A stretch of DNA of 64,000 bases from Lichenicola sp. (GTDB lineage: Bacteria > Pseudomonadota > Alphaproteobacteria > Acetobacterales > Acetobacteraceae), in NCBI GenBank assembly GCA_965198655.1, contig OZ240668.1, positions 3,196,767 to 3,260,766 of the forward strand. Reading direction: 5' to 3'. The translations under genes and the position numbers were made by a program. The notes under the pieces were generated by a model. The model was not told the origin of the DNA and did no database searches. It saw only the letters and a list, made by a program, of their open reading frames with translations. This document shows positions 6,817-59,638 of this stretch, one piece after another (within the stretch, counting starts at the first letter, position 1; every line of letters starts with the position of its first letter).

Positions 6817-7308
6817 TCAACGATGCGGCTCCATCCAGCTCAGGTAGGCCGCTACCGGGCTGGTCAACGCCAAGCCCTTCAAGTCCCCCAACGCCACCAT
6901 GCGTGCCCCTATGATCTCGCTGCCGTCCACCTTCAGCTCCGGCAGCCGGTCTAGACGCAGCTCGAACAGGTGGACCACGTCGTTCCGTCCGTCCGACAGG
7001 CCACGGAAGATCCCGGCGGGGGTCAGGGTCTTCGCGATCAGCCCGACCTCCTCCATCAGCTCCCGCTTCGCCGCTCCCTCCGGGGTCTCGCCAGCACTCA
7101 CCCCACCACCGGGAAAGTTCCACTGCGGCCGGTATGAGGAGCGCACCAGCAGCACGCTGTCGCCAACGTAGACGGCGACCAGTGCGCCGATATGAGGCGC
7201 GCGGCGGATGCGCCACCACAGGGTCGCCAACGGGAAGCCGATGCGGAACACGAGGCGCCGCGTGCGGTCCCGCAGCGTAGGGCGGGAGGTCCAGGTGGTC
7301 GGGTTCAA
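6817..7308 (-). CDS. NUDIX hydrolase
   Basis: Nudix box GGGVSAGETPEGAAKRELMEEVGL. The ORF-track start at 7308 is TTG, so the true start is uncertain. Confidence 0.7.
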   Translation of the reverse strand: MNPTTWTSRPTLRDRTRRLVFRIGFPLATLWWRIRRAPHIGALVAVYVGDSVLLVRSSYRPQWNFPGGGVSAGETPEGAAKRELMEEVGLIAKTLTPAGIFRGLSDGRNDVVHLFELRLDRLPELKVDGSEIIGARMVALGDLKGLALTSPVAAYLSWMEPHR

Positions 7309-7434
7309 GAGATCAACCGCGATGTACCACAGCCTGCTCGATGGCAGCCTTCACCTCGATCGGGGTTGTCCGGCCACACGCTGCGAGCGCGCGCCGATCA
7401 CCGCTGCCGGTTCGTAAGATCAAGCCATTCTCCG

Positions 7435-7650
7435 CTAGCACAGCCGCCAGAGCGGACACGACGGCAAGGATATCACGCCTCCCAACAGGACCATCATCGC
7501 CAGGAGTGCCGGGAGGGCCCTCTTAGCCGGCTTGATGAACGCAGTGCCGATGCCGTTGATCGGATAGCTGGCATCATCGATGCGGACGAGTGTCCGGGTT
7601 ACCTGAACATCATTTGCGAAGTAGAGCGTCTGCTCGCAAGCGGCTGGCAT
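7435..7650 (-). CDS. small membrane protein, DUF6232-like (tentative)
   Basis: QTLYFANDVQVTRTLVRIDDASYPINGIGTAF followed by a hydrophobic segment LPALLAMMVLLGGVISL. This resembles the short 'T-x-R-x-V-x-x-x-x-Y-P-I-x-x-I' PH-like membrane proteins. It lies in a lower-GC region. Confidence 0.3.
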   Translation of the reverse strand: MPAACEQTLYFANDVQVTRTLVRIDDASYPINGIGTAFIKPAKRALPALLAMMVLLGGVISLPSCPLWRLC

Positions 7651-8332
7651 GTCGTCACTCGTTCCAAAACCACGATTAGCTTAGGACGGTTTGACATGCT
7701 CGCGGGTACCTCGTCTGTCTCAGATTGGAGTGTCACCATGTTTCCGCGCGCAGGTCAGGCCGCAGTCTCGTCGCTACCGACCCGCCCAAGGACCCTCTTC
7801 ACGGCTGTTGCAATCCAGTCTGATCCGCCGCGCGTCGTCTTCACGTCCCTTGCCCTCAGTTCCCTGGCAACGGCTCCAGGACTTGCCCCCCCTGCCTGGC
7901 GTCGGCAGCAAGTTCGCTATGATGCGCTTCAGCATGTGCTCCGCATGGTCCGCCGCCAGCCGTTCCAGGGCATCTTCCGTTCACCTGGGTTCACTTCGAT
8001 GCTCTGGCCTGTTGCTTGAGCGAGCATCTTCGCCCGATCAGGTGATCTACCTGATCGGTATCGGCCTCGTCCGGCTGGGAACGTGCGAAGCCGTGGCGAG
8101 CTGAACCGTCACGGAGCCTGGCTGTGGCCCCGACGACGGATTCAAATCGAGGAACTGAGTACAGGTGTTCCGCCAACGGTTCAGCCGGTCTTGCGGAAGG
8201 ACCGGTCGCTGGAATCGACCAAGGCACCGACAGTCCTTTGACGGGAGCTTCGCAAGCCGAGGCGACATCGTTGGATAGGAGAACGGTCGTCGCCAACGAG
8301 ATGCGAAGCTTGAGCCGGTGCTAGGCTCCGGC

Positions 8333-8749
8333 TCAAGCGGCGCAGGGAACGGGCATGACACCCCAAGCTGCCAGTTGCAGCCCTATATCCGCCCGTATGG
8401 CCTCCACAGCCGCTTCAACGGTCCGATACGGTCCCGACTCGGCAACGTCGCCGACCTCGTCCAGCTCGTTCCTGTGAATGACACGGAACCGTCCCCGTGA
8501 TCCCCGCCAAATCTGGAAGCTGCCGACGGGTGGCCCGGCGACCCGCGTGATCATGACATGGTCGTGTCGCACCCCGGCATCCGCGTCCCGCATCAGGGCG
8601 ACGGTAAACCAGCCTGTCGGCAGCGATTGCGCTGCCTGCGTCGCTTGGTCGAACATGAACGCGGTCATGAACGTGTCCGCGGGAACCGCGAAGGTGACGA
8701 CGTTGCTTTGAGCGTAACCGGTCTTATCGGTGGAGGAAGCTTGGGGCAC
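8333..8749 (-). CDS. hypothetical protein
   Basis: 138-aa ORF in the lower-GC stretch with non-repetitive, globular-looking sequence. No family recognised. Confidence 0.35.
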   Translation of the reverse strand: MPQASSTDKTGYAQSNVVTFAVPADTFMTAFMFDQATQAAQSLPTGWFTVALMRDADAGVRHDHVMITRVAGPPVGSFQIWRGSRGRFRVIHRNELDEVGDVAESGPYRTVEAAVEAIRADIGLQLAAWGVMPVPCAA

Positions 8750-9586
8750 AGCACGCTTCTTTGCTCTGGGTCAGACAGGAGCGAGAGGGTTGGGTATCCC
8801 CGCGCCATGGCGTTCTATGCCAGGTTGTAAACCTTTTTGGAAGACAACCCTGAGGTTTATTAGTGAGACGAGTCACGCTCCCGTGAACCTGCTGCAGACT
8901 CTCCACCTGCAGTGGGACCTCGACCTGCACGTGAAGGCTCGCTCAAGCCTCCTCACCGGCCTTGTAGAGCGGCTTGCTGGGCCGTTGAACGTTTGACCGA
9001 ACGCGATAGTCCGCACTTGGATACGCGACGACAGGTGCAGGAGCGGGTTGTGCCGCTGCTGGTTGCTCAGGTTGTCCCGGCTGAACGCCTGCCGCCGAGC
9101 GAACGCTTTGCCTGTGCTTGGTGAGGGCGTCGCGTCTGGGTCCGGCCTTGTGAACATGACCTGCATCTCCTTGAGCTGCGGGATCGCAAGCTTAAGGAGC
9201 GGCTTTCGAACAGCAGGAAGCACGCTGGGGCGCACATGGGTTCTCGGCAACGAAGACGCCGGCCCCCGTAGCCCTGATGCCATACGCCAGCTTCCCAACC
9301 TCGATCAGGTTGCCGCCGGACTGTTCAGGCTGAGCGCCACGAACATTTCCGATGTCCGGTCATCATGAATGCCGCCGCAACCCGGTCGATGTCACTCCGG
9401 ACACCAAACAATTCCACGTCGTGATGGACCAGAAGAACTATCAGGAGAAAGTCCAAGCCATCCCGATGCTGTCAGCACCCGTCACACCTCGTTACAGCTC
9501 TCGCCCGAATCACGCCGCAGAGCTGGAGCTGACTGCGTTCAATCCAACGGTTTACCTAGACCACCGTTGGCATGAGGAGAACCACC

Positions 9587-9799
9587 ATGAACGTCCGTCA
9601 GGCCATCAAGCGGCCGCTTCTGGCCGTCGCCGCAGTCGCTGCAATCCTTGGCGCTGTTCCGATCGCGAACGCGCAGCCTTTCCCGCCTCTGCCGCCCGGC
9701 TGGGTCGGTCCCCACTACTACTACGGCGGTCATTACTGGCATCGTCGGGTCTGGGTATGGGATCGGTTCCATCACCATCGCTTCTATCGCTACTATTGA
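9587..9799 (+). CDS. small secreted His/Tyr/Trp/Arg-rich protein
   Basis: GAGGAGAA Shine-Dalgarno 5 nt before ATG 9587. Signal peptide MNVRQAIKRPLLAVAAVAAILGAVPIANA. Mature 41 aa: QPFPPLPPGWVGPHYYYGGHYWHRRVWVWDRFHHHRFYRYY. Confidence 0.55.
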   Translation: MNVRQAIKRPLLAVAAVAAILGAVPIANAQPFPPLPPGWVGPHYYYGGHYWHRRVWVWDRFHHHRFYRYY

Positions 9800-10443
9800 C
9801 CATCCGGGCGGGGGCGTCGCAGGGCATTGCGGAGCCCCCGTTTGCCGGACCGGCGTCAGCCGGGCCTAGGAGCCTGTCCAGCAGTCTCGGCAACGATCCA
9901 CGCCACATATCCCGAGCTGCCTGAAGAACGCCCTTCCGGTGCCCGCTCAGCCCGCTGCGCCGCCGACGCCGGCGCGTCCCGGCATCATGCGACAGCATCG
10001 TCGTGACGGCTCAAGCCGCCAGGTGATGCAGTGCAACCTTCGGCGCCACGCTCTCACGTCGGAACAGGATCGGCTCAACAATTCTGGGCCTGGTGGGCTA
10101 TAGGTCGGATCAAGCTCACCGCCGGGACGCGGGAACGCGTTTCCTTGGGAAGCGGCAGCATGGCCAGAACAGGAACCTGTCGGGGCCCGGTTGACCGTCC
10201 ACCGAAAGACCGACGATGAGACTGCACGTGGCGACGCTACCCGAATGTCCAAGGGCAGGAGCCAGCCCGACCTCGTGCCTGCGCCGTGCGACGCCGGATG
10301 AGCCGGGTGCTTACCCGCGCGCGGCTTCTTCCGACCGGGCCGCGCGATCGGGCCGGCGAGGCTCTGCCTTCCCTGGTCGCTCGGAAGATGCAAGGAAACG
10401 GCGACGTCGAGCCGCGGGGCGGCTCCAGGGAGCGTAACCGGTC

Positions 10444-12743: not shown

Positions 12744-12862
12744 AAGGCCAGGGCTCTGCCCTGGACCCGCTGGGGCCGGAGGCCCCAGACCCCTTTTACT
12801 TCAAGAATCGGGTTTGAAGGGCTCTGCCCTTCATGGGGTCCAGGGGCAAAGCCCCTGGCCTT
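12744..12862 (+). repeat. composite nested-hairpin intergenic repeat (REP/MITE-like), copy A, short form
   Basis: AAGGCCAGGGCtctgCCCTGGACCC / CTGGGGCCggaGGCCCCAG / TTGAAGGGCtctGCCCTTCA / GGGTCCAGGGGCaaaGCCCCTGGCCTT. The termini are inverted repeats of each other. Confidence 0.85.
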
Positions 12863-12960
12863 CGCCGCCAACGGAAGCTTCCAAACGGACGCGCGCGCAG
12901 CATCCCCGCCAAGGCTGGATTTCGTTTCGCAGGCGGTGTTTTCCGATTGGGACAAGTATC

Positions 12961-14604
12961 ATGCGGTCTCCCCTGCGTGGAGATGGCATGTCGGACCGAC
13001 CCGGGTTGTTCTTGCGCTTCGGCGACGTGCGCGTTCCGGCCACGTTCCACGGCACGGCTAGTCTGATGGACCCCGCCGAGCCGTTGCCGCCCGCGCCACC
13101 CTGCGGTTACGACGACCTGCCCGGCACGTTCCACGCCGAGCTCGACATCACCTTCGACCTGCTCGTGGGCCTGGGGTACAGGCCGGTCGATCCGTCGCAC
13201 CCGGCCTATCCGCTCTACCTCGCCGCCGCCAGCGCTTCCCGCGAGCCGGCAGCGGCCTCGCCCGAGCCGGTGGGCGGCATCGATCGGTACTCCCCCTACG
13301 CCATCGTCTTTCCGTTCCAGACCATGGTGCCGGTCACCGCGGCCATGGCGCTGCGATACGGTCTGGTGGCGCCTGGCCGGGCGACCTCGGGACACGGACG
13401 CGATGCCGCTCAGCCGCAGCCCGTCCGGCGCAAGCCGGCACCGCCGCTCCATCATGCCAAGGCCGGCTCGAGCGGAGCCCCGCCGCCGCCGATCGGCGAC
13501 TTCGAGGCGTTTCTCGACTTCATGGGCAATCCGGAGCGGCATGGGGCTGGCGGCGCTGCCGACGCGGACCATCCGTCCGGCACCGCGCTGGCGGAGAAGG
13601 TCCCCGACGCAGCGTCGCCAACGCCCGCGACCGGGACCGGGACCGGGACCGGGACGCCCGCGCTCATGCTGCCGTCCCTGGCAACCGCATCGCCATCAAC
13701 CGCCATGCCGCCGGCAGCCGGCACGGCGCCACCTGCCGTGGGTATTGTTCCGGCCATGGGGAGAGTTGCCACCGCCGGCGCGGAAGCCGTCGAGGCAGCG
13801 GCCCTGTCCACCGGCGCGTCCGTGCTGGCCGCGCCGGCGGCCGCGGCGGTGGTCTTGCTGGCGCCGACCTCGACCGCCGCCGACGACACGCTCCTCGCGA
13901 AGGGCATCCCGATCGGGCCGCCCCTGCGTAAGCCGAGGGTCGATGTCGGCGATCTCGGGGCCGACCTGAACCTGGGCGCCAACGCCTTTTCGCCGGCGCC
14001 GTCGCCCGCATCGGGCGCGCCGCCGCTGGTGCCGCCCGAGACCCGTCCGATGCGGGAAAGCCTGCCGATCGCGACCGCCGACGGCTGGCGGGAAAGCCTG
14101 ACGCCTCCCGCACCTCTGCCGCCGCTGCCCGGCTTCGCAACGCCGGACATGGGCGGGCCGACCGAAGCGGAGGGGTTCACGCCGTCAGGCGGCGACGTGC
14201 CGATCATCCTGGAGGCCCGAAAGCCTGTCGGTCCGGACGTGTCGCGGGTCAACGGCCGTTATCCGCGCAACGCGGACTACGCGGGTCAGAACTATCCCGC
14301 AAGCAAGTTGCCACCTGCTCTTCAGGCCTTGTATCCGAACGGCGTTGACTTCACGCCCCAAGGCTTCCCGGATCTCAGACCATATGCCAAATTCGAAACG
14401 AAAGTTCCGGATCTGACCGGAGATCACAAAAAGGACGCTAGAAAGGCCAACGAAAACGTTGGTCTAGCTAGAACCCCTGAAGGTTACACCTGGCACCATG
14501 TCGAGGATGGAGTCACCATGCAGCTTGTTCCGAGCGACCTTCATGAGAGCATAGCTCATACGGGAGGCGCTGCGGCCAAGAAAGGGGAAAGGAATGGCCC
14601 TTGA
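12961..14604 (+). CDS. polymorphic toxin with C-terminal WHH-type HNH/EndoVII nuclease domain; N-terminal domain unassigned
   Basis: C-terminus ...GYTWHHVEDGVTMQLVPSDLHESIAHTGG carries the four-His WHH-family signature. A long Ala/Pro-rich linker sits in the middle. Start set at the first ATG after repeat copy A (12961; alternative 12988). The stop overlaps the immunity gene start (ATGGCCCTTGA). Confidence 0.75.
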   Translation: MRSPLRGDGMSDRPGLFLRFGDVRVPATFHGTASLMDPAEPLPPAPPCGYDDLPGTFHAELDITFDLLVGLGYRPVDPSHPAYPLYLAAASASREPAAASPEPVGGIDRYSPYAIVFPFQTMVPVTAAMALRYGLVAPGRATSGHGRDAAQPQPVRRKPAPPLHHAKAGSSGAPPPPIGDFEAFLDFMGNPERHGAGGAADADHPSGTALAEKVPDAASPTPATGTGTGTGTPALMLPSLATASPSTAMPPAAGTAPPAVGIVPAMGRVATAGAEAVEAAALSTGASVLAAPAAAAVVLLAPTSTAADDTLLAKGIPIGPPLRKPRVDVGDLGADLNLGANAFSPAPSPASGAPPLVPPETRPMRESLPIATADGWRESLTPPAPLPPLPGFATPDMGGPTEAEGFTPSGGDVPIILEARKPVGPDVSRVNGRYPRNADYAGQNYPASKLPPALQALYPNGVDFTPQGFPDLRPYAKFETKVPDLTGDHKKDARKANENVGLARTPEGYTWHHVEDGVTMQLVPSDLHESIAHTGGAAAKKGERNGP

Positions 14605-15142
14605 TATCGATCCTCCCGACAGGGTGCCGTCCGAGGCGGAGATACAGGATCTCGAACGTCAACTCGGCTTCCGCCTCCCTGACCGCTTCAGGGCCCTGCT
14701 TCCGCAACTGAACGGCGCCGTAGCAGAACCGAACACGATCAAGGGACCTGGGGACGAGGATTACGAGATCAACGTGTTCGAAAAGATCGAGGAGATCGCC
14801 CAAAGCAAGAACGCGATCGACAGCGAGAGGCCTACCGACCTCCTGCTGGTGCCGTTCGCCATGGATGGATGCGGCAACCATTTCTGCGTCGTTGCGGCCG
14901 ATGGCCCCGAGACGGGAGCGGTCTACTTCGAGGACCACGAGATCGCGGGAGACGAAGCGTTCTTGAAGATCGCCGCCAGCCTGGACGAGTTGATCGAGAA
15001 CGCCGAACCCGATGTCGACACTGATGAAGGCGGCAGCACGGGGATCGTTACCTACGCCGAGCCAGGCTTCCTGGAGTTCTGCAAGGAGCAGGAAAGGGAA
15101 AGGCAGAAGAAGAGACAGGAAAGGAAGGAGGGGAAGAAATAG
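14594..15142 (+). CDS. SUKH-1 (SMI1/KNR4) family immunity protein, copy 1
   Basis: SEAEIQDLERQLGFRLPDRFRALLPQLNG ... LLLVPFAMDGCGNHFCVV...VYFEDHE matches the SMI1/KNR4 pattern. It lies immediately 3' of the toxin with an 11-nt overlap. Lys/Glu/Arg-rich tail. Confidence 0.8.
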   Translation: MALDIDPPDRVPSEAEIQDLERQLGFRLPDRFRALLPQLNGAVAEPNTIKGPGDEDYEINVFEKIEEIAQSKNAIDSERPTDLLLVPFAMDGCGNHFCVVAADGPETGAVYFEDHEIAGDEAFLKIAASLDELIENAEPDVDTDEGGSTGIVTYAEPGFLEFCKEQERERQKKRQERKEGKK

Positions 15143-15183
15143 CCAGACACCCGTGGTTTGCCAGGTGTAGCCATTTGACCACC

Positions 15184-15300
15184 ACCTGGCACCATGTCGA
15201 GGATGGGGTCACCATGCAGCTTGTTCCTACCGACCTTCACGACAGCGTAAAGCATATTGGCGGCGTCGCGGTCAGGAAAGGAGAAAGGAATGGCCCTTGA
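15184..15300 (+). pseudogene. orphan toxin C-terminal tip (WHH nuclease fragment, no start codon)
   Basis: In-frame TWHHVEDGVTMQLVPTDLHDSVKHIGGVAVRKGERNGP*, 30/38 identical to the end of the full toxin. In-frame stops lie upstream, and homology begins exactly at the TWHH codons. Confidence 0.8.
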
Positions 15301-15837
15301 TATCGATCCTCCCGACAGGGTGCCGTCGGAAGCGGAGATACAGGATCTCGAACGTCAACTCGGCTTCCGCCTTCCCGACCGCTTCCGGGCCCTGCTTCCG
15401 CAACTGAACGGCGCCGAAGCAGAGCCGAACGTAATCAAGGGTGTTGGGGACGGGGACTACGCCATCAACAGGTTCGAGAAGATCGAGCACATCGTCGACA
15501 GCAAGAACGCGATCGACAGCGTGAGGCCTTCCGATCTCTTGCTGGTGCCGTTCGCCATGGATGGACTCGGCAACTGGTTCTGCGTCGTTGCGGCCGATGG
15601 TCCCGATAAGGGGCGGTCTACTTCGTGGACCACGAAATCGAGGGTGACGAGGCCTTCTTGAAGATTGCCGCCAGCCTGGATGAGCTGCTCGAGAATGCCG
15701 AACCCTACGTCGACACCGACGAGGGCGACAGCACGGGGATCATTACCTACGCCGAGCCAGGCTTCCTGGAGTTCTTCAAGGAGCAGGAAAGGGAAAAGGA
15801 AAGGAAGAGGAAGGAAGCGAAGAAAGATGGCCCTTGA
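15290..15837 (+). pseudogene. SUKH-1 immunity paralog, copy 2, interrupted by a -1 frameshift near 15612
   Basis: Frame 1 (15290-15661) matches copy 1 up to ...FCVVAADGPDKG, then reads nonsense. The next frame (from about 15625) resumes DHEIEGDEAFLKIAASLDELLENAEP.... Alignment to copy 1 shows one base missing (GGGAGCGGTC versus GGGGCGGTC). Confidence 0.7.
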
Positions 15838-16339
15838 TGTCGATCCTCCCGACCGGGTGCCGTCCGAAGCGGAGATACAGGATCTCGAACGCCAGCTCGG
15901 CTTCCGTCTCCCCGACCGCTTCAGGGCCCTGCTTCCGCGACTGAACGGCGCCGTAGCAGAACCGAACGTGATCAAGGGATCTGGAGACGAGGACTACGGG
16001 ATCAGCAGGTTCGAAGAGATCGAGCAAATCGCCCAAAGCAGGGAGGCGATGGACAGCCAGAACCCGTCCGATCTCTTGTTGGTGCCCTTCGCTGACAATG
16101 GATGCGGTGACTGGTTCTGCGTCGTTGCGGCCGATTGTCCCGAGAAGGAGGCGGTCTACTTCGTAGACCACGAATTTGAGGGAAACCACGCCTTTTCGAG
16201 GATCGCTGCCAACCTGGACGAGTTGTTCGAGAACGCCGAACCCGACATCGACACGGATGATGACGACAACAAGGCAACCGTTGTCTGGATCGAGCCAGGA
16301 ATTCTTGATCCACTAAAGGAGAAAGAAAAGAAGAACTGA
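15827..16339 (+). CDS. SUKH-1 (SMI1/KNR4) family immunity protein, copy 3
   Basis: MALDVDPPDRVPSEAEIQDLERQLGFRLPDRFRALLPRLNG...LLLVPFADNGCGDWFCVV...VYFVDHE. The same ATGGCCCTTGA junction joins it to the preceding gene. Confidence 0.8.
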   Translation: MALDVDPPDRVPSEAEIQDLERQLGFRLPDRFRALLPRLNGAVAEPNVIKGSGDEDYGISRFEEIEQIAQSREAMDSQNPSDLLLVPFADNGCGDWFCVVAADCPEKEAVYFVDHEFEGNHAFSRIAANLDELFENAEPDIDTDDDDNKATVVWIEPGILDPLKEKEKKN

Positions 16340-16802
16340 TCAAGCATCCACTGGACTGCGAGATTGACGAACGCCGTAAGGGCGGAGGGCTCACACCCGC
16401 GAACGAAGCCGGTGACCCGGGCGGGACTGGCGCCGCTCGGACGTGCCTGGCCTGGTTCAGGCCTGGCTTGACAAGAGACCACGACGAACAACACACGGCT
16501 GGCGATCCGCGACACGATCCCTGCGATGAAATTGCGCAGACCTGGGCGTCAGAAAACCGATCAGGCGGCTGCGGCGCGCATGAGACGGCGCCCATGTCCG
16601 GCGCGTCCTGCGCCCCGTCACCGCCAGGAACGCCGCCAGCCACCGGTCCGGACCATCCGGGCAGGCAGCCCGCGTCGCCATCGCCGCTCCCGGCTTCCCA
16701 TCCGCACGCCTGCCTCGGCTCGCTTTGTGCGCGGCGCCGGTGCTGCCGCCTGTACGTCGCGCCGACGTCGGGATCGTGCCATCCCGGCTCGCCGTCGGTC
16801 AG

Positions 16803-16962
16803 AAGGCCAGGGCTCCGCCCATCGATCTGCTTCGCAACGCGGTCCGCTGGAACCGTCACGCGACGCGTGCCCACGCAGGACGGCCCCAGACTCCTTTCCT
16901 TCAAGAATCGGGTTTGAAGGGCTCCGCCCTTCATGGGGTCCAGGGGCAAGGCCCCTGGCCTT
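16803..16962 (+). repeat. composite nested-hairpin repeat, copy B, long form
   Basis: Same termini and core as copy A, plus the internal CCCATCGATCTGCTTCGCA...CCGCTGG module shared with copies C and F. Confidence 0.8.
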
Positions 16963-17010
16963 CCCGACCCAAGGCCACGAGCCGGATCAACGAGGGGCCG
17001 ACCGCCCGCC

Positions 17011-22207: not shown

Positions 22208-24388
22208 ATGCGCCCGAGATCGCGGTCCAGCCTTGCCATCCCGTTCCTTGTCGCAGGCCTCCTCGCCAACGCGTCGGTGCTGGCCGGCGACCGGGGTGCG
22301 CCGGCAACAACCGTGGCGCCGGTGACCGACACCTACCACGGCGTCACGGTCACCGATCCCTATCGTTGGCTGGAGAACGGCGCCGACCCCAAGGTCGAGG
22401 CCTGGTCCGCGTCGCAGAACGCCCGGACCCGGACCTATCTGGACCGCCTTCCCGAGCGTCGCGCCCTGTTCGACCGCATCCTGTCCCTGACCGACGCGGC
22501 GTCGCCGGCCTACCACGACCTGCACGAAGCGGGCGGCCGCCTGTTCGCGCTCGCGGTCCAGCCGCCGAAGCAGCAGCCGCTGGTGGTCGACATGGACCCG
22601 TCCGGCAACCCCGCGACGGCGCGCGCCGTGGTCGACCCGAACGCGATCGATCCCGGCGGCCAGACGGAAATCGACTGGTACGTGCCGTCGCCGGACGGCA
22701 AGCTCGTCGCCGCCTCGCTGTCGCGCAACGGCAGCGAGGACGGCACGGTGCACGTCTTCGACGTCGCGACCGGACGCGACCTCGGCGAGGCGGTTCCCCG
22801 CGCACAGTATCCGACCGCGGGCGGCAGCCTCGCCTGGAAGTCCGACTCCTCCGGATTCTGGTACACGCGCTATCCCGGCGTCGAGCGTCCGGAGGCGGAC
22901 CGGAACTTCTACCAGCAGGTCTACTTCCACGCGCTGCACGCCGATCCCGTCACCGACAGCTACGTCGCCGGGAAGGACTTCCCGCGGATCGCCGAGATCG
23001 TCCTGGACGGCAGCCAGAACCGGAACGGCGTGCTGATGTCGGTCGCCAACGGCGATGGCGGCGAGTTCGCGCAATACGTCATCGCCCAGGCGAGCGGGCG
23101 CGTCCGCAAGGTCAGCGACTTCGCCGACAAGGTCGTCGCCGCGTCGATCGGACCCGACGACGTGCTCTACCTCGTGTCCCGCAAGGACGCACCGCGCGGC
23201 CAGTTGCTCGGTCTTCCCCTGTCGGACCCCGTCCTGGCGCACGCCAAGGTCCTGGTGAAGCAGGGCGACGGCGTGATCGAGGGTGGCGGCGAGTTCGGCG
23301 GCGAGGCGGTGGCGGTGACGCCGGGCTCGCTCTACCTGCGCGAGCTGGTGGGCGGTCCGTCGCGTGTGTCGATCTATGGCCACGACGGCACGCCGCAGGG
23401 CGTGGTGCCGCTGCCGCCGGTGACCGCCGTCAGCGAGGTCGAGCCGGCGGGAGACGGACACGTCCTGGTCGCGTTCGACAGCTATCTCAAGCCGCACCAG
23501 GTGGTGCGCTACGACGAGACGGCGAAGCACGTCGAGAACACGACGCTCGCCTCCACCAGCCCCGTGGACTTCGGCGGCATCACGGTGGAGCGCGCGTTCA
23601 CGGTGTCCCGGGACGGCACCCGTGTCCCGTTCAACATCGTCATGAACAAGGAGACCAGGCTCGACGGCCGCAACCCGCTCCTGCTCTACGGCTACGGCGG
23701 CTACAACATCTCGGACGAGCCGAGATTTCTCGGCGCCGGCTTCCGCGCCTGGCTCGCCGCGGGCGGCATCTACGTGGACGCGAACCTGCGCGGCGGCGGC
23801 GAGTATGGCGAGACCTGGCACCAGCAGGGCGCGCTGCTGAACAAGCAGCACGTGTTCGACGACTTCATCGCGGTCGCGCGCCAGCTCGTGGCGCAGCGCT
23901 ACACGTCGCCGCAGCACCTGGCGATCCTGGGCGGCAGCAACGGCGGGCTGCTGATGGGGGCGGCCCTGACGCAGGCGCCGCAGATGTTCAAGGCGGTGGT
24001 GTCCCTGGTCGGCATCTACGACATGATGCGCATCGAGCTCGACGCGAACGGCGCCTTCAACACGACCGAGTTCGGCACGGTGAAGGACCCGGCGCAGTTC
24101 CACGCCATGCTGGCCTATTCCCCCTACCAGGCAGTGCGCGACGGGGTGAGATATCCGGCGGTGTTCATGGCCACCGGAACCCATGACGGACGGGTCAACC
24201 CGGCCCAGTCACGAAAGATGATTGCCCGGCTGCAAGCGGCCACCGCGTCGGACCAGTCGATCTACCTGTCGATCAGCGACAAGGCCGGACACGGCATCGG
24301 CAGCTCCGTGGCGGTCCGGGTGGGCCAGCAGGCGGACTACATGGCCTTCCTGTTCGACCAGCTTGGCATGAGCCTGCCGAAGTCCTGA
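22208..24388 (+). CDS. prolyl oligopeptidase family (S9A) serine peptidase, secreted
   Basis: Signal peptide, DPYRWLE N-terminal motif, beta-propeller region, GGSNGGLLMG nucleophile elbow, C-terminal D...GHG catalytic residues. Confidence 0.85.
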   Translation: MRPRSRSSLAIPFLVAGLLANASVLAGDRGAPATTVAPVTDTYHGVTVTDPYRWLENGADPKVEAWSASQNARTRTYLDRLPERRALFDRILSLTDAASPAYHDLHEAGGRLFALAVQPPKQQPLVVDMDPSGNPATARAVVDPNAIDPGGQTEIDWYVPSPDGKLVAASLSRNGSEDGTVHVFDVATGRDLGEAVPRAQYPTAGGSLAWKSDSSGFWYTRYPGVERPEADRNFYQQVYFHALHADPVTDSYVAGKDFPRIAEIVLDGSQNRNGVLMSVANGDGGEFAQYVIAQASGRVRKVSDFADKVVAASIGPDDVLYLVSRKDAPRGQLLGLPLSDPVLAHAKVLVKQGDGVIEGGGEFGGEAVAVTPGSLYLRELVGGPSRVSIYGHDGTPQGVVPLPPVTAVSEVEPAGDGHVLVAFDSYLKPHQVVRYDETAKHVENTTLASTSPVDFGGITVERAFTVSRDGTRVPFNIVMNKETRLDGRNPLLLYGYGGYNISDEPRFLGAGFRAWLAAGGIYVDANLRGGGEYGETWHQQGALLNKQHVFDDFIAVARQLVAQRYTSPQHLAILGGSNGGLLMGAALTQAPQMFKAVVSLVGIYDMMRIELDANGAFNTTEFGTVKDPAQFHAMLAYSPYQAVRDGVRYPAVFMATGTHDGRVNPAQSRKMIARLQAATASDQSIYLSISDKAGHGIGSSVAVRVGQQADYMAFLFDQLGMSLPKS

Positions 24389-24464
24389 CAGCCAGTCGTG
24401 CCACCGATCCCGGTCGCCGCCTCAGAGTTGGCGACGATCCGGGCTCGAAACGACGGAATGCCGA

Positions 24465-24800
24465 TCAAGGAAAAACGTAGCCGAAGCGGACATATCCAGG
24501 GAACACCGGATATGGATAGTATCCCGCGTAATACGGATAGGATCCATAGAACGGGTAGGCCGCGTAATAGGGATAGGCCGCATAGTACGGGTAGCCGGAA
24601 TAGACGACGGTGGGATGGGCTGTCGCGACAAGCTGATTGCTGGGCGTGCGTGTCTGGGTCGTCGCCAACTGCTGCGTGCGGGGAGTGGATGCAGGTGCGG
24701 ATGCCACCGGCAATGCCACCAGTGGCGGCGGCGGTGGCTCGACGACGCATCCGGTCAGCATGGCCAACAGGACTGAACTTCCGATTCGATGTGCGCGCAT
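24465..24800 (-). CDS. lipoprotein with Tyr/Pro-rich repeat C-terminus
   Basis: Lipobox LLAMLTGC after MRAHRIGSSV, a proline tract, then YSGYPYYAAYPYYAAYPFYGSYPYYAGYYPYPVFPGY. Confidence 0.55.
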   Translation of the reverse strand: MRAHRIGSSVLLAMLTGCVVEPPPPPLVALPVASAPASTPRTQQLATTQTRTPSNQLVATAHPTVVYSGYPYYAAYPYYAAYPFYGSYPYYAGYYPYPVFPGYVRFGYVFP

Positions 24801-24970
24801 GTCATCCACCCCGACGATCCGCAGAAGAATTGGAAGCCGCTCGGCGTCCTGCAATCGGCGTCGTCGGACGGAGGATTACCTTTGCGTGAGCCGACGCGGC
24901 ACGAAGATCCTTCGATACAAGACGAGACGATTTGAGTACATCGACGGCCATGACGTTGGAGGAAGCAAGC

Positions 24971-25672
24971 ATGTCCGGCCTTGGCCCGTTGACCGTCGCC
25001 GCGGCGCTGTGGGTCGGCGTGCATGTCGGCATCGCCGGCACCTCCGTGCGTCGGGCGGTGGCCGGGCAGATCGGCGAGGCCGGGTTCCGCGGCGTGTTCT
25101 CGCTGCTTTCCGTCGCCGCGATCACCGCCCTGGTGGTGACCTACAAGCGCGCCCGCCTGGCCGGCAGCGAACAGCTCTGGACAGCGCCGTACTGGCTGGG
25201 CTGGATCCTCGTCCTGCTGATGGCGCCGGCCTTCGTGCTGTTGGCAGGCTCGGTCGTGCGGCCGAACCCGACCGAGGTCGGCGGCGAGCGGGCGCTCGGG
25301 CAGGAGCCGCGCGGGCTCGCGCGCGTCACCCGCCACCCGATGCTCTGGTCGTTCGCGACCTGGTCGGCGGTCCACGTGGTCGGCAACGGCGACCTGGTGT
25401 CGCTGCTGTTCTTCGGCGCCTTCGGGGTCACCGCCCTAGCCGGCATGCCCTCGATCGACGCCAAGCTGGCGAAGCGCGATCCGCAGAACTGGGCGCGGCT
25501 GCGCGACGCGACCTCGATCCTGCCGTTCGGCGCCATCATGGCCGGGCGCAACCGGCTGGCGCTGCGGGAGATCGGCTGGATCGCGCCGGCGGCCGGACTG
25601 GCGCTCTGGGCGCTGCTGCTGGTGATCCACCCCCGGCTGTTCGGGGTGTCGCCGCTGCCAGGGCAAGGCTGA
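24971..25672 (+). CDS. NnrU family membrane protein
   Basis: GGAGGAAGC Shine-Dalgarno before ATG 24971. LWVGVHVGIAGTSVR...TRHPMLWSFATWSAVH pattern of NnrU. Confidence 0.7.
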   Translation: MSGLGPLTVAAALWVGVHVGIAGTSVRRAVAGQIGEAGFRGVFSLLSVAAITALVVTYKRARLAGSEQLWTAPYWLGWILVLLMAPAFVLLAGSVVRPNPTEVGGERALGQEPRGLARVTRHPMLWSFATWSAVHVVGNGDLVSLLFFGAFGVTALAGMPSIDAKLAKRDPQNWARLRDATSILPFGAIMAGRNRLALREIGWIAPAAGLALWALLLVIHPRLFGVSPLPGQG

Positions 25673-25906: not shown

Positions 25907-27673
25907 TTGGCCGATCGTTGGAACAGCCTGCCCGCGATGCTGCTGGGCCTCGCCGCCCGACACGGCGACCGGCCGATGCTGCGGCACTGGGGCGCAGGCG
26001 GCTGGCAGCGGACCAGCTGGCGCGACTTCGCCACCGCGGTCGCCGCGGCGGCGTCCGGCCTGCGGGCGCATGGCATCGGTGCCGGCGACCGGGTGCTGCT
26101 GGTCAGCGAGAACCGTCCGGAGCTCCCGATCGCGGAAACGGCGCTGCTGTCGCTCGGTGCTGTCGTGGTGCCGACCTACGTCACCAACACCGTGCGGGAC
26201 GACGCCCACATCCTGCGCGATAGCGGGGCCACGGCTGCGATCGTGTCCAGCGCCGCCCTGGCGACGCGGGTGGGCGAGGCGGCGGGTCCGGGCGCCTTGG
26301 ACCTGCTGGTGTCGATGGAGCCGGCCGACGGGGCGCTGCCGTGGCAGGGGCTGCTCGGGGGTCCCGACGATCCGGCCCGGCTCGCGGCCGACGTCGCGGG
26401 GCTCCGGCCGGGCGACCTCGCCTGCCTGATCTACACCTCCGGCACCGGCGGTGCGCCCAGGGGGGTGATGCTGCCGCATCGCTCCATGCTGGCCAACCAG
26501 CGGGCCATCGCCGAGGTGTTGACGCCGATGCGCCTCGACGGCGAGCGCTACCTGTCGTTCCTGCCGTTGTCGCATTCCTACGAGCACACGGTCGGCAACT
26601 ACATCCTGCCCTCGCTCGGGATGGAGGTGGTGTACAGCCGCGGCGCCGACCGGCTGGCCGCCGAGTTCCGGGAGATCGAGCCGGCCCTGGTCACCGCCGT
26701 GCCGCGCCTGTTCGAGGTGCTGCGCGGCCGCATCACCGCCGAGGTGGCGCGCCAGCCGCAGTGGAAGCGGGCCCTGTTCGCCCGCACGCTCCGGCTCGGC
26801 CTGCAACGGCTCGACGGGCCGCCGCTCACGTTGGCGCAGCGCATCGAGGACCTGGCCCTGGACCGGCTGGTGCGTCAAACGGTGCGTCAGCGCTTCGGCA
26901 GCCGGCTGCAGGCGATCGTGTCCGGCGGCGCGCGGCTCGACCCGGAGCTGTCCGGCTTCTTCCTGGCCCTCGGCGTGCCGCTGCTGCAGGGCTACGGCCA
27001 GACCGAGGCGGGGCCGGTGGTCAGCGTGAACCTGCCCTGGGACAACGACCGCCGCAGCGTCGGCCGGCCGCTGCCGGGGGTGGAGGCGCGCATCGCCGGC
27101 ACTGGCGAGCTGCTGCTGCGCGGCGAGCTGGTGATGGACGGCTACTGGAACGACGCGGCCGGGACGGCGATCCGGCACGATCCCGATACCGACCCGCAAG
27201 GCGAACCTTGGCTGCACACCGGCGACGTGGCGCGGATCGAGCACGGACGGATCGTGATCGAGGACCGGCTGCGCGACGTCATCAAGCTGCTGAACGGCGA
27301 GATGGTCAGCCCGGCCAAGCTGGAAACCCTGCTGATGGGCGAGGATGACATCGTCCAGGCCGTGGTCGCGGGCGAAGGCCGGCACCACGTGGTGGCCCTG
27401 CTGGTGCCGGCCGAGGACGCCGATCCGGCGGCGGCGGTCCGGCGGGTGAACGCGAAGCTGGCCCGGCCGGAGCAGATCCGGCGCTGGGGCGTCATGCCCG
27501 CCGCCACGATCGAGAACGGGCTGCTGACGGCGTCCATGAAGCTCCGCCGCCGCCTGGTGCTGCAGCGACATGCCGCCGAGGTCGACGCGTTGTACGGGTC
27601 GGCGGCTAAGGCCAGGGGCCTTGCCCCTGGACCCCATGAAGGGCGAAGCCCTTCAAACCCGATTCTTAAGTAA
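25907..27673 (+). CDS. AMP-dependent acyl-CoA synthetase/ligase (long-chain-fatty-acid--CoA ligase-like)
   Basis: LIYTSGTGGAPRGVMLPH AMP-binding motif, GYGQTEAGP, TGDVARIE. TTG start at 25907. The last 22 codons lie inside repeat copy C. Confidence 0.8.
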   Translation: MADRWNSLPAMLLGLAARHGDRPMLRHWGAGGWQRTSWRDFATAVAAAASGLRAHGIGAGDRVLLVSENRPELPIAETALLSLGAVVVPTYVTNTVRDDAHILRDSGATAAIVSSAALATRVGEAAGPGALDLLVSMEPADGALPWQGLLGGPDDPARLAADVAGLRPGDLACLIYTSGTGGAPRGVMLPHRSMLANQRAIAEVLTPMRLDGERYLSFLPLSHSYEHTVGNYILPSLGMEVVYSRGADRLAAEFREIEPALVTAVPRLFEVLRGRITAEVARQPQWKRALFARTLRLGLQRLDGPPLTLAQRIEDLALDRLVRQTVRQRFGSRLQAIVSGGARLDPELSGFFLALGVPLLQGYGQTEAGPVVSVNLPWDNDRRSVGRPLPGVEARIAGTGELLLRGELVMDGYWNDAAGTAIRHDPDTDPQGEPWLHTGDVARIEHGRIVIEDRLRDVIKLLNGEMVSPAKLETLLMGEDDIVQAVVAGEGRHHVVALLVPAEDADPAAAVRRVNAKLARPEQIRRWGVMPAATIENGLLTASMKLRRRLVLQRHAAEVDALYGSAAKARGLAPGPHEGRSPSNPILK

Positions 27674-27743
27674 AAGGGGTCTGGGGCCTCCGGCCCCAGC
27701 GGACCGAGCTGCGAAGCAGATCGGTGGGCAGCGCCCTGGACTT
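27608..27743 (-). repeat. composite nested-hairpin repeat, copy C, long form, inverted orientation
   Basis: Reverse complement of the copy F architecture, including the GAGCTGCGAAGCAGATCGGTGGG module. Confidence 0.8.
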
Positions 27744-31909: not shown

Positions 31910-31917
31910 ACGCGGCG

Positions 31918-32034
31918 AAGGCCAGGGGCTTTGCCCCTGGACCCCATGAAGGGCGGAGCCCTTCAACCCCAATTTCTTAAGTAATGGGGTCTGGGGCCGA
32001 GGCCCCAGCGGGTCCAGGGCAGAGCCCTGGCCTT
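31918..32034 (-). repeat. composite nested-hairpin repeat, copy D, short form, inverted orientation
   Basis: AAGGCCAGGGGCtttGCCCCTGGACCCCATGAAGGGCggaGCCCTTCAA...CTGGGGCCgaGGCCCCAG..GGGTCCAGGGCagaGCCCTGGCCTT, between convergent carD and the PNGase-like gene. Confidence 0.85.
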
Positions 32035-32041
32035 CAGCCTA

Positions 32042-39277: not shown

Positions 39278-40205
39278 GGCCTTTGAACGTGAAGACCCAG
39301 GGGCTTTGCCCCTGGACCCCATGAAGGGCAGAGCCCTTCAAACCCGATTCTTAAAGTTAAGGGGTCTGGGGCCTGCGGCCCCAGCGGGTCCAGGGCAGAG
39401 CCCTGGCCTTGGCGGCAGCCTGCGCGCCGGGACCGTGCTCGCGCTGCTGATCCTGTCGCTGTGCTTCCTGCTGCCGCTGGCCTGGCGCGCCGACCCGTAC
39501 GCGCTCAACCCGTCCTCGCCGCTGTCGCACCCCTGTGCCGCCTACCCGCTCGGCACCGACGAGCTCGGCCGCGACGCCCTGGCGCGGGTGATGGATGCCG
39601 GCCAGGCGACCCTGCTGGTGGCGCTGCCGGCCGCGGTGGTGACCTTTCTCGCCGGACTGCTGTACGGCCTCGCCTCCGGCCTGGGTCCGCGGCTGCTCGA
39701 CGCGGTGATGATGCGCCTGCTCGACGCGGTGCTGGCGCTGCCGGGGCTGGTGGTGCTGATCTTCTTCGCCGCCATCCTGCGGCTGTCGACCGCCTCGCTG
39801 ATCCTGCTGCTCGGGCTGATCTCCTGGCCGCCGCTGGCCCGGCTGGTGCGCAACGAGACGCGGGCGCAGCGCGACCGCGAGTTCGTCCAGGCGGCGATCC
39901 AGATGGGCGGCGGCTTCTTCCACGTCGCCACCACCCACCTGCTGCGGGTGATGGCGCCGGTGCTGGCGGTGAACTTCACCTTCCTGGTCGGCGAGATGAT
40001 CCTGCTGCTGTCCGCGCTGTCGTTCCTGGGCCTGGGCGTGCAGCCGCCGCAGACCAGCTGGGGCGGGCTGCTGGAGAGCGCGCTGCAACTGGTGGCGCTC
40101 GATCCGTGGTGGCTGGTGCTGCCGCCCGGGCTGCTGATCTTCGCCTCCCTGCTCTCGGCCTCGCTGATCGGCCAGGGGCTGCTGGCGCGTCAGGGACGCC
40201 CGTGA
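39270..40205 (+). CDS. ABC transporter permease (DppC/OppC-like); start ambiguous because of the repeat insertion
   Basis: The core from ...VLALLILSLCFLLPLAWRADPY onward is DppC-like, with EAA loop ETRAQRDREFVQAAIQMG. ATG 39270 is coupled to the upstream stop, but codons 3-47 are the repeat. Alternative GTG at 39435. Confidence 0.75.
   Translation: MSKAFEREDPGALPLDPMKGRALQTRFLKLRGLGPAAPAGPGQSPGLGGSLRAGTVLALLILSLCFLLPLAWRADPYALNPSSPLSHPCAAYPLGTDELGRDALARVMDAGQATLLVALPAAVVTFLAGLLYGLASGLGPRLLDAVMMRLLDAVLALPGLVVLIFFAAILRLSTASLILLLGLISWPPLARLVRNETRAQRDREFVQAAIQMGGGFFHVATTHLLRVMAPVLAVNFTFLVGEMILLLSALSFLGLGVQPPQTSWGGLLESALQLVALDPWWLVLPPGLLIFASLLSASLIGQGLLARQGRP
39276..39410 (-). repeat. composite nested-hairpin repeat, copy E, inverted orientation, at the dppB/dppC-like junction
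   Basis: Same core as copy D. It starts within the stop codon of the first permease. 135 nt, stop-free in the downstream permease frame. Confidence 0.8.
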
Positions 40206-49383: not shown

Positions 49384-51018
49384 TCATGCTCCCGGCTCGG
49401 GGCGGATCAGCGCGGTCTCGATCAGCGCGACCGTTTCCTGCACTCCGTACAGGGCGATGAAGATGCCGAAGCGCGGGCCCTCGGTCTGGCCCAGCAGCAC
49501 CTCGTAGAGGCAGCCGAACCAGGCGCGCAGCTCCGGGAAGTGGTGCCGGTGGCCGACCGCGAACACCAGGTCCTGCAGCGACTCCGGGTCCGCCGCGTCC
49601 GGGCCTACCCCCTTCAGCGTTTCGGCCAGGTCGACCAGGGCCGCGCGCTCGCGCGCATCGGGCGCGCGGAAGGTCTTCGCCGGGCGGACGAAGTCGCGGT
49701 AGTAGGCGACCGCGTGCTCGACCAGGCGGCCCAGCATCGGATCGGCGTCCGTCGAGGCGCCCGGCCGGTAGCGGTCGAGGAAGCCCCACAGCACGTCCGG
49801 GGTGTCGGCGTTGGCGACCGAGGCCAGGTTGAGCAGCATGCCGAACGGGACCGGGCTGACCGCTCCGGGGGTCGCGCCGCGGTCGATGAACCAGGCCGGG
49901 TTGGCCTTCAGGGCGAGATCCTGCCCCGGGTCGGCGGCCTGCTGGGCGGCTTGCTGAGCGGCCTTGGCGCGGTTGGCGAGGTACTCGTCGGCGGCGCGCG
50001 GGATGACGTCGAAGAACAGCCGCTTGGCCCGGGTCGGCTGGTTGAACATGTACTGGGCCAGGGATTCGGCCGGGGCGTAGCGCAGCCATTCCTCGACCGA
50101 CAGGCCGTTGCCCTTGGACTTGCTGATCTTCTGCGCGTGCTCGTCCAGGAACAGCTCGTAGGTCAGGGTCACCGGCGGCTCGGCGCCCAGCACCCGGCAG
50201 ATGCGCGACGACAGGCGCACGCTGTCAATCAGGTCCTTGCCGGACATCTCGTAGTCCACGCCGAGGGCCACCCAGCGCATCGCCCAGTCGGCCTTCCATT
50301 GCAGCTTGGCGGCACCCCCGGTGACGGGGGTCTCGAAGGTGCGGCCGCCCTCGTCGCGCCAGCGCACCGTGCCGGCATCGGCGTCGACCGCGTCGATGCG
50401 GACCTGCATCACCACGCCGGTTTCGGGATGCAGCGGCAGGATCGGGGAGTAGGTGGCGCGTCGGTCCGGGCCGAGCGTGGGCGCGATCACCGCGACGATC
50501 TCGTCGTGCACGGCGAGCACGCGGCGCAGGGTCTGGTCGAAGCGGCCGGCGCGGTAGTACTCGGTGGCGGAGGCGAACTCGCAGGCAAAGCCGAAGCGGT
50601 CGAGGAAGGCGCGCAGGCGGGCGTTGTTGTGCGCGCCGAAGCTGTCATGGGTGCCGAACGGGTCGGGCACCGCGGTCAGCGGGCGGCCGAGGAAGCCGGC
50701 CAGCATGTCCCGGTTGGGCACGTTGTCGGGGACCTTGCGCAGGCCGTCCATGTCATCGCTAAAGGCGAGGATGCGGGTGGGGCGGCCGGTGAGCGCGGTA
50801 AAGGCCTGGGCGACCCAGCCGGTGCGGGCGACCTCGCCGAAGGTGCCGATATGCGGCAGGCCGGAGGGGCCGTAGCCGGTCTCGAGCAGGGGGACGGCGT
50901 CGGGGCCCTTGGCCTGCATGCGGGCGGCGAGCTTCGCGGCCTCCTCGAACGGCCAGGCTTTCGGCAGCGGCGTCTGGGTGTTGGGCGAGCGGGTCGGTGT
51001 CTGGACGGCGGAGGACAT
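49384..51018 (-). CDS. lysK: lysine--tRNA ligase, class I
   Basis: GYGPSGLPHIGTFGEVAR (HIGH region), KISKSKGNG (KMSKS), 544 aa: the class I LysRS layout. Confidence 0.9.
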   Translation of the reverse strand: MSSAVQTPTRSPNTQTPLPKAWPFEEAAKLAARMQAKGPDAVPLLETGYGPSGLPHIGTFGEVARTGWVAQAFTALTGRPTRILAFSDDMDGLRKVPDNVPNRDMLAGFLGRPLTAVPDPFGTHDSFGAHNNARLRAFLDRFGFACEFASATEYYRAGRFDQTLRRVLAVHDEIVAVIAPTLGPDRRATYSPILPLHPETGVVMQVRIDAVDADAGTVRWRDEGGRTFETPVTGGAAKLQWKADWAMRWVALGVDYEMSGKDLIDSVRLSSRICRVLGAEPPVTLTYELFLDEHAQKISKSKGNGLSVEEWLRYAPAESLAQYMFNQPTRAKRLFFDVIPRAADEYLANRAKAAQQAAQQAADPGQDLALKANPAWFIDRGATPGAVSPVPFGMLLNLASVANADTPDVLWGFLDRYRPGASTDADPMLGRLVEHAVAYYRDFVRPAKTFRAPDARERAALVDLAETLKGVGPDAADPESLQDLVFAVGHRHHFPELRAWFGCLYEVLLGQTEGPRFGIFIALYGVQETVALIETALIRPEPGA

Positions 51019-51930: not shown

Positions 51931-52014
51931 AGCAATGACAAGGATCGCCACGACCCATCTTCGGCATGGTCATTAGTTCCTTGGGCGAGAAAGCGACGCG
52001 GCCACTCGTCTGCT

Positions 52015-59622: not shown

Positions 59623-59638
59623 TCACTTAGAAGCAAGC

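Follow-up and report, generated by a model that had tools for sequence, protein, structure and literature searches.

A toxin gene and its SUKH array

A 64,000-nucleotide (nt) stretch of Lichenicola sp. DNA (contig OZ240668.1, positions 3,196,767 to 3,260,766), referred to here as the window, contains a cassette of a predicted toxin gene and its immunity genes. The positions given below are those of the window, and all features of the cassette lie on the forward (+) strand. The toxin gene (12988..14604) ends in a WHH-type nuclease domain and is followed by three genes of the SUKH-1/SMI1_KNR4 type: imm1 (14594..15142), imm2 (15290..15837) and imm3 (15827..16339), with the orphan remnant of a second toxin (15184..15300) lying between the first two. 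We regard the identification of this locus as a toxin-immunity locus as nearly certain.

The toxin open reading frame (ORF) can be read from an ATG at 12961 to the TGA that ends at 14604, which yields 547 amino acids (aa) with the C-terminal end ...GYTWHHVEDGVTMQLVPSDLHESIAHTGGAAAKKGERNGP; the mechanically called ORF begins further 5', at TTG 12814. An earlier reading of this DNA, made from the sequence letters and a list of ORFs (the sequence-only reading), adopted the 547-aa form. The ORF is intact and its C-terminal residues are as that reading gave them, while the start needs revision. Comparison of eight related loci points to ATG 12988 as the conserved start, giving a 538-aa protein, and the upstream ATG at 12961 is either out of frame or missing in relatives. 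Because the start context is conserved in the eight loci and the upstream codon is not maintained, the toxin most likely begins at ATG 12988. The resulting ORF is collinear with its relative P0001 (544 aa, 75% identity, 98% coverage).

Directly upstream is a cassette leader (12918..12987), with GGGAC-N3-TAT at 12949-12959 and GGAG at 12979-12982, six bases 5' of the ATG. Similarity of the leader to the related loci L001, L002, L004 and L015 begins at 12918-12922. The order GGGAC-N3-TA, GGAG, six bases and ATG-TCG-GA recurs in eight loci, in all of which GGGAC..TA and GGCATG are invariant. The conserved leader may act as a shared promoter or regulatory site, or as a ribosome-binding site (RBS). 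A consensus promoter scan found no sigma-70-like site at the locus, a terminator scan found terminator-like sites at chance level only, and there are no tRNA or Rfam features nearby. Equivalent leaders precede cassettes with different warheads in L001, L002, L003, L006, L009, L014 and L015; in these, GGGAC-N3-TA(T/G) precedes the ATG by about 35 nt, and TTTCGTTTCG often occurs further upstream.

The C-terminal toxin module (14200..14604) was assigned by the sequence-only reading to the WHH clade of HNH/EndoVII nucleases, and profile searches bear this out. The Pfam WHH family (PF14414) matches residues 504-541 of the 547-aa ORF (14470-14583) with 60.4 bits against a cut-off of 25.1 (E=1.4e-16), and the Colicin-DNase family (PF12639) matches with 49.8 bits (E=6e-13), over profile positions 63-96 only. 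About 80 C-terminal residues, from 14341 onward, align with PDB entry 8bd1 (E=1.3e-12), whose record title is 'RhsPWHH-RhsPI toxin-immunity pair', and with 8h8a/8h8b (E=1e-11 to 1e-10). In the alignment, YTWHH...DLHESIAHTGG of the window toxin (TWHH at 14488-14499) lies opposite YVWHH...SVH...VAHTGG of 8bd1, with the tryptophan and four histidines conserved. An AlphaFold2 (AF2) model of the C-terminal 138 residues, built from a shallow alignment, is weak, with a mean predicted local distance difference test score (pLDDT) of 54; a strand-strand-helix core is visible in it, and its top Foldseek match is also 8bd1. Chance matching is not an issue here, because the domain E-values range from 1e-16 to 1e-19. 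The assignment of the C-terminus as a WHH-clade HNH/EndoVII (beta-beta-alpha-metal) nuclease domain is thus supported at the level of sequence, and the domain is predicted to act as a DNase.

The toxin stop and the imm1 start fall within an 11-nt overlap, ATGGCCCTTGA at 14594-14604, the overlap that had been noted before. Downstream of the toxin are three paralogous units, which correspond to the repeat families D1 and D2. The SUKH-1 identity proposed for these genes is upheld by the Pfam SMI1_KNR4 profile (PF09346, cut-off 25.4 bits), which gives 69.7 bits (E=4.7e-19) for the 182-aa imm1, 55.2 bits for the N-terminal fragment of imm2, and 69.3 bits (E=6.2e-19) for the intact 170-aa imm3, itself 71% identical to imm1. 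No solved structure related by sequence to the SUKH genes was found in single-sequence or profile searches. Directly downstream, co-directional SUKH genes accompany the toxin in L001 and L014 as well, and imm1 is the predicted cognate immunity gene, whose product would neutralise the toxin.

Two further SUKH paralogs head to tail, as the sequence-only reading had it, are indeed present; that description has to be amended in that imm2 is frameshifted and that a toxin-tip remnant lies between imm1 and imm2. The frameshift is a 1-nt deletion near 15612 (GGGAGCGG versus GGG-GCGG of imm1), which breaks the frame after codon 108. The imm2-imm1 alignment has this single gap, the repeat spacing (696 versus 695 nt) agrees with it, and imm2 appears as two tblastn pieces and as ORF fragments. 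Once repaired, imm2 is 95% identical to its intact ortholog in L014 (L014_B), and the frameshift may stem from recent decay into a pseudogene or from an error in sequencing. The start of imm3 sits on the imm2 stop by way of another ATGGCCCTTGA junction. Positive selection on the SUKH paralogs was considered and rejected: Nei-Gojobori ratios of nonsynonymous to synonymous substitution (dN/dS) were 0.05-0.18 for codons 1-44 and 0.2-0.63 for codons 45-140, with no region-wide excess of dN, and for one paralog pair an indel made the value meaningless.

What is left of the second WHH toxin, its final 38 codons with their stop (TWHHVEDGVTMQLVPTDLHDSVKHIGGVAVRKGERNGP), lies in the 147-nt spacer between imm1 and imm2. 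By tblastn this remnant matches toxin residues 501-538 with 79% identity (E=2e-16), and its differences from the main tip fall mostly in the tail beyond the last catalytic histidine. It starts exactly at the near-invariant TWHHVEDGVTMQLVP coding stretch, which could serve as a crossover point for swapping the variable tail together with its immunity gene. Comparable toxin-tip remnants are found in L001 (2912-3022) and in L014. Because the remnant precedes imm2 and the ATGGCCCTTGA junction recurs, the array consists of toxin-tip/immunity units that arose by duplication or displacement and were trimmed afterwards. Base composition changes within the toxin gene itself: the GC content is 0.70-0.78 over the first 1.2 kb and 0.52-0.62 from about 14200 to 16450, with a drop from ~0.74 to 0.52-0.60 at ~14200, and at third codon positions it is 0.85 in the 5' part of the gene, 0.59 in the toxin module and 0.89 in the neighbouring kdgK-like gene. 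The break falls inside the ORF, where the C-terminal module begins, as would be expected if the warhead and immunities had been acquired by recombination.

The sister-strain locus L014 provides an informative comparison. L014 shares its metagenome of origin with L004 and L015. Its flanks are 90% identical to the window, and its coverage of 1x makes its frameshifts unreliable. Its cassette occupies the same site, between MFS/PfkB (KdgK) genes and DUF1275. The active tip in L014 is a different variant, ...HTGGFAVDKGGKNGS, 70% identical to the window tip over the last 87 residues, and the adjacent immunity gene (L014_A) is 88% identical to window imm3 and 69% identical to imm1. Conversely, the window tip is 84% identical to that of P0001, and window imm1 is 86% identical to the immunity gene adjoining P0001 (L001_i1). 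Toxin tip and adjacent immunity thus co-vary. Moreover, the order of the units differs between the window and L014, and one L014 copy is a mosaic, which argues for frequent recombination among units. The suggestion of spare immunities made by the sequence-only reading gains substance from this comparison: window imm3 is the ortholog of the active immunity gene of a sister strain, adjoining a different tip variant there, as would be expected of an orphan immunity gene that is retained for protection, and imm3 may confer such protection. The comparison offers a clean natural example of toxin-tip swapping and makes specific cross-protection experiments possible. The cassette ends in a 3' tail (16340..16403), in which similarity to L001 stops at about 16364 and similarity to L014 at about 16403, and the same tail is found after the imm3-type gene of L014.

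An N-terminal module shared by unrelated warheads

The unusual part of the predicted toxin is its N-terminal 400 aa, not its C-terminus. A family-specific domain of about 135 aa (12988..13392) was delimited from alignments A1 and A2; it is 64% identical to the N-terminus of P0004 (A1), a protein that shares only these first ~135 residues. Searches of Pfam and NCBIfam with toxin residues 1-500 gave no match at E<=0.1, and none of the recognised trafficking domains (PAAR, Rhs, TPS/FHA, LXG, MafB-N and similar) was found in the N-terminal part with either database. The toxin has no match in PADLOC or PHROG. The AF2 model of the module is moderate (pLDDT 66), with three short helices and mostly coil, and Foldseek found no PDB fold match to it.

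How widespread is this module? A profile built from twelve N-terminal modules (A2) was run exhaustively against 1.84 billion representative proteins and recovered 14 proteins (clusters) at E<1e-10. The named sources are all Acetobacteraceae, and in GTDB only three species representatives carry the module. Carriers include Endosaccharibacter trunci KSS8, Rhizosaccharibacter radicis and the metagenome-assembled genomes of L001, L004, L006 and L015. No further copies were found in plasmids, phages, IMG/VR or, in two scans, JGI metagenome contigs. Full-length relatives are rare, namely P0001 (75% identity) and P0002 (68%), both of which end in WHH. Other members carry different C-termini: that of P0004 is a Phage_lysozyme domain, lysozyme fusions of the module also occur in L003 and L004 (the lysozyme version has a weak Pesticin match, E=0.026), and in L006 and in P0025/L010 the module is fused to C-termini with no assigned family. 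A restriction-endonuclease-like C-terminus was considered for P0025 and dropped for lack of a Pfam match.

The ORF downstream of the effector gene varies with the warhead. It encodes SUKH after WHH, a signal-peptide protein of about 130 aa after lysozyme (in tandem in L004), a multi-transmembrane protein after the L006 domain, and a soluble 135-aa protein after P0025. The predicted effectors form a true polymorphic family, because the N-terminal module is constant while C-termini and downstream ORFs change together; the proposal of a polymorphic toxin locus, originally made from the window alone, is thereby strengthened. In L006 (9980-11764, 11771-12232) and L010 (10001-11137, 11310-11717), neither the C-terminal domains nor the downstream ORFs have a Pfam or NCBIfam match, and these are candidate new toxin and immunity families.

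Between the module and the warhead lies a low-complexity linker of about 230 aa (13393..14187), rich in Pro, Ala and Gly; from residue 140 to the last 110 residues the composition is 17% P, 19% A and 11% G. Within the Pro-rich region is a short conserved motif, GDFEAFLDFMGNP (residues 170-182, 13495..13533). The general form, (D/G)DFxAFLDFLGDP, is found 30-100 residues past the module in P0001, P0002, P0005, P0009, P0013, P0016, P0017, P0019 and the L006 ORF. The linker also contains a hydrophobic 19-mer, LSTGASVLAAPAAAAVVLL (13804-13860, Kyte-Doolittle 1.90), which is present in the WHH-type P0001 and P0002 and absent from the lysozyme-type P0004. The module and the hydrophobic segment may have roles in export and entry, respectively, as discussed below. 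In several relatives the effector gene (L015 10001-11880, L003 10001-11913, L004 9776-11877) is often split just past the N-terminal module, by a frameshift into an Arg-rich alternative frame of the GC-rich, Pro-rich linker; these splits include a 125x-coverage contig and an isolate genome, and the L004 gene has lost its start codon besides.

The toxin-immunity pair itself adds little, considering that WHH and SUKH-1 have been predicted, solved and validated elsewhere. What is new is a compact, undescribed N-terminal module on effectors with several unrelated warheads. We give even odds to the proposal that the module and the DFxAFLDFLG motif constitute an undescribed, Acetobacteraceae-restricted delivery marker that brings diverse warheads (WHH, lysozyme and at least two others) to one export route. 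New N-terminal markers have repeatedly opened effector discovery in other lineages, and if this proposal is true, the module would be usable for discovering new toxin and immunity families. In a bolder version, the common route would be a bacteriocin-like import path in Alphaproteobacteria and not a T6SS (type VI secretion system). The locus also draws attention to antagonism between bacteria in a little-studied part of the Acetobacteraceae.

Delivery and alternative explanations

How would the toxin reach other cells? The scheme that we favour is an interbacterial one. The product of imm1, an overlapping and probably translationally coupled gene, would act in the cytoplasm of the producer, where it would bind the nuclease and inhibit it. 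The toxin, which has no signal peptide, would use its N-terminal module for loading onto a type VI secretion system (T6SS) whose genes lie at another place in the genome. Once injected into adjacent bacteria, it would degrade their DNA; the hydrophobic segment of the nuclease-carrying members may aid crossing of the target inner membrane. The array would then be a record of past toxin swaps, with the remnant of another tip preceding the frameshifted imm2, and the orphan imm3 would guard against a toxin variant held at the same site by sister strains. Delivery by a T6SS seems to us somewhat better than an even bet, and the complete statement, an interbacterial polymorphic toxin-immunity locus including T6SS delivery, is probable to the same modest degree.

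The T6SS proposal draws on two observations. The closest ortholog (75% identical, with two SUKH genes), in L001, ends 218 nt from a PP2C-TssM-TssL(OmpA)-TssK-Fha cluster. At the DNA level, L001 resembles the window over 12918-16364 only, the extent of the cassette, so that the cassette is a unit that occurs in different surroundings. In addition, the effectors have no signal peptides and the ORFs that follow the lysozyme versions do. Because only these ORFs carry signal peptides, the toxins would reach the periplasm or cytoplasm of a neighbour from outside rather than by self-secretion, and a one-step injection system fits best with this predicted pattern.

A number of findings weigh against T6SS delivery. 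The link rests on the single locus L001. Seven other module loci (L002, L003, L004/L015, L006, L008, L009 and L010), and the window, have housekeeping neighbours and no VgrG, PAAR, Hcp or adaptor gene. No effector gene of this family adjoins the related T6SS cluster of Acidisoma sp. C75. Searches of Pfam and NCBIfam linked the N-terminal module to no known T6SS marker or other family, and its moderately confident model is mostly coil. Finally, the frameshift-split family members and the broken imm2 may indicate that parts of the system are decaying.

The sequence-only reading saw no secretion or delivery genes in the window, and none was found in the full 64 kb: Pfam annotation of the 20 largest credible ORFs gave housekeeping families only, and tblastn of the window with 14 T6SS proteins of Acidisoma sp. 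C75 and with the L001 TssK, TssL and TssM proteins gave nothing. In a search with the L001 TssK, the 120 matches listed were all at least 70% identical, and the module-carrying isolate genomes KSS8 and KSS12 were not among the matches listed. The paper that describes the species is silent on secretion systems.

A rival explanation is a soluble bacteriocin of the colicin or pyocin kind, which would leave the producer with no injection machine of its own. Here the N-terminal module would bind a receptor in the outer membrane, the long disordered region would be threaded across the envelope by Ton- or Tol-dependent import, the HNH domain would kill, and SUKH would serve as the immunity protein. 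The architecture is suitable, in that a long, low-complexity Gly/Pro/Ala-rich region joins the N-terminal module to the C-terminal killing domain, which matches Pfam Colicin-DNase (49.8 bits), and the immunity gene follows directly downstream. Moreover, the warheads of the family resemble those of bacteriocins, as in the pesticin-like lysozyme with a periplasmic immunity protein (the Pesticin match itself being weak) and the version with a multi-transmembrane ORF (L006); most module loci are scattered and not linked to secretion genes; and the conserved PFETT(V/I)T(V/I)T, as read from alignment A2, is a putative TonB-box-like segment. That segment, however, is internal (residue ~110), whereas those of colicins are near the N-terminus. 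Only the killing domain finds a match in Pfam or NCBIfam, where no colicin or pyocin receptor-binding or translocation domain was detected, and the cassette has no apparent lysis gene. The position of the closest ortholog beside a T6SS cluster also argues against a bacteriocin: with eight loci and a genome of ~4 Mb, the chance that one lies within 1 kb of the cluster edge is roughly <1%. We consider a bacteriocin unlikely.

It is less likely still that the locus is a decaying relic, a former T6SS or other effector locus whose toxin is no longer delivered and where selection acts mainly to retain the immunity genes, which would shield the cell from its neighbours. Arrays of orphan immunity genes that lack an active toxin are a known phenomenon (PMC3113570). 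The frameshift in imm2, the lack of secretion genes found within 64 kb, and the loss of a start codon and the frameshifts in effectors of relatives (L004, L015/P0007, P0008) would suit such a history. The toxin gene itself, however, is an intact 538-aa ORF, collinear with P0001, in which every catalytic residue is kept; its RBS, start codon and leader are conserved, and imm1 and imm3 are intact. Cargo effectors are, moreover, commonly encoded far from their T6SS. Nor does it seem at all probable that the cassette works wholly inside the cell, as a toxin-antitoxin or anti-phage abortive-infection module in which SUKH restrains a nuclease that is not exported. HNH nucleases with adjacent inhibitors do occur in defence systems, and the SUKH genes have a weak partial match (24 bits) to the candidate PADLOC family PDC-M40A, but the toxin has no counterpart in PADLOC or PHROG, and a 400-aa non-catalytic N-terminal extension, common to lysozyme paralogs with signal-peptide downstream ORFs, makes no sense intracellularly. 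Orphan toxin tips and immunity arrays are, moreover, a signature of exported polymorphic toxins.

Flanking sequences and comparison with known systems

The cassette is flanked by elements resembling repetitive extragenic palindromes (REP-like elements), which are not part of the toxin system proper. The element is about 85-125 nt long with several GC-rich hairpins, a folding z-score of -4.5 and no Rfam match. One copy lies upstream (12775..12874, +) and another downstream in direct orientation (16882..16963, +), the latter missing at this position in L014. The other copies in the window are at 27601-27702(-), 31912-32036(-), 39297-39410(-) and 59636-59784(+), six in 64 kb and always intergenic, and the element is also present in L002, L004, L014 and L015. 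The flanking pair was considered as island boundaries or att sites and rejected as a distinctive signal, given the six window copies and an L014 cassette that has no right-hand copy.

A second site involves the same kind of repeat. In L004 (9433-13293) and L015 (9456-13881), which are 92-95% identical to the window at the nucleotide level with ~17 kb of synteny, a lysozyme-fusion cassette of 3.9-4.4 kb with one or two signal-peptide ORFs sits between topoisomerase and AMP-binding genes. At this place (27623-27708) the window has one REP-like copy only, whereas in L004 interrupted REP-like pieces, all oriented alike, border the cassette. The arrangement suggests that effector cassettes may be gained and lost by recombination at REP-like repeats. 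An apparent IS110-type transposase remnant beside the L004 cassette was dropped for want of a Pfam match.

Between the end of the cassette and the downstream REP-like copy, the ~0.5-kb segment 16364-16880, which is missing from the syntenic L014, has no credible ORF or Pfam match and a higher GC content (0.66-0.77). A 3-kb stretch of lower GC content (7300-10400, 0.62-0.64) has no confident gene; the 75-aa ORF at 9572-9799 (+) has a signal-peptide-like N-terminus and a His/Tyr/Trp/Arg-rich tail, PHYYYGGHYWHRRVWVWDRFHHHRFYRYY. Local GC dips occur at 51001-52000 (0.58) and 24001-25000 (0.62), against about 0.70.

Among known systems, RhsP-WHH/RhsPI of Vibrio parahaemolyticus (8bd1; full Rhs in 8h8a/8h8b) has the same extreme C-terminal toxin domain and an adjacent immunity gene. 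The W-H-H, the LH/VH histidine and the AHTGG histidine all align with the window toxin, and the context of RhsP is T6SS-associated. RhsP, however, holds its toxin in an Rhs/YD-repeat shell of ~1400 aa, whereas the window protein lacks both Rhs repeats and PAAR, and in their place carries a 135-aa module and a low-complexity linker. No relationship between RhsPI and SUKH was detected in single-sequence or profile searches.

A WHH nuclease with a downstream SUKH-1 immunity gene is likewise found in YPO3609-YPO3610 of Yersinia pestis, for which DNA degradation, SOS induction, loss of toxicity on mutation of the fourth histidine, and neutralisation by SUKH have been reported (PMC13515810). YPO3609 has an Rhs carrier and a single immunity gene, in contrast to the array with an orphan toxin tip in the window. 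The pairing of WHH with SUKH-1 as nuclease and immunity was predicted earlier, and in SUKH arrays next to HNH-fold WHH/LHH/AHH toxins the extra copies were interpreted as immunity to non-self toxins, with cassettes swapped by recombination (PMC3113570). The arrays described by Zhang, Iyer and Aravind consist of tandem diverged paralogs, as in the window, although the Pfam trafficking domains of such systems were not detected in the window toxin.

The nuclease colicins and S-type pyocins share with the window toxin a C-terminal HNH-type DNase, a downstream immunity gene and long disordered segments, and pesticin is a lysozyme-type analogue with periplasmic immunity. Colicins use Im-type immunity proteins, while the window uses SUKH; the window toxin also lacks any detected receptor-binding or translocation domain of colicins or pyocins, and its cassette lacks an apparent lysis gene. 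The orphan modules of cdiA and rhs genes offer another parallel, in that the 3' end of a truncated toxin gene, together with the immunity gene that belongs to it, likewise lies downstream of the active pair, and strains vary in which variant is active. The window remnant differs in beginning within the catalytic motif TWHH, with 38 codons, and does not use the pre-toxin junctions of the cdiA/rhs type (VENN, PxxxxDPxGL). The TPS/FHA domains or Rhs/YD repeats of a CdiA or Rhs carrier were not found by Pfam in the 538-aa toxin. By the criteria tested, the locus is a predicted polymorphic toxin-immunity locus, and its carrier is not of the Rhs, contact-dependent inhibition (CDI), PAAR or colicin type.

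A parallel in overall logic is with T6SS cargo markers such as MIX, FIX and RIX, in which a shared N-terminal module is joined to variable toxins with their own immunity genes, mostly at scattered sites and in some cases next to a T6SS. The window family follows the same logic; no relationship to these markers was detected in Pfam or NCBIfam, and the family is far smaller (14 clusters). Its membership among the T6SS cargo effectors is plausible.

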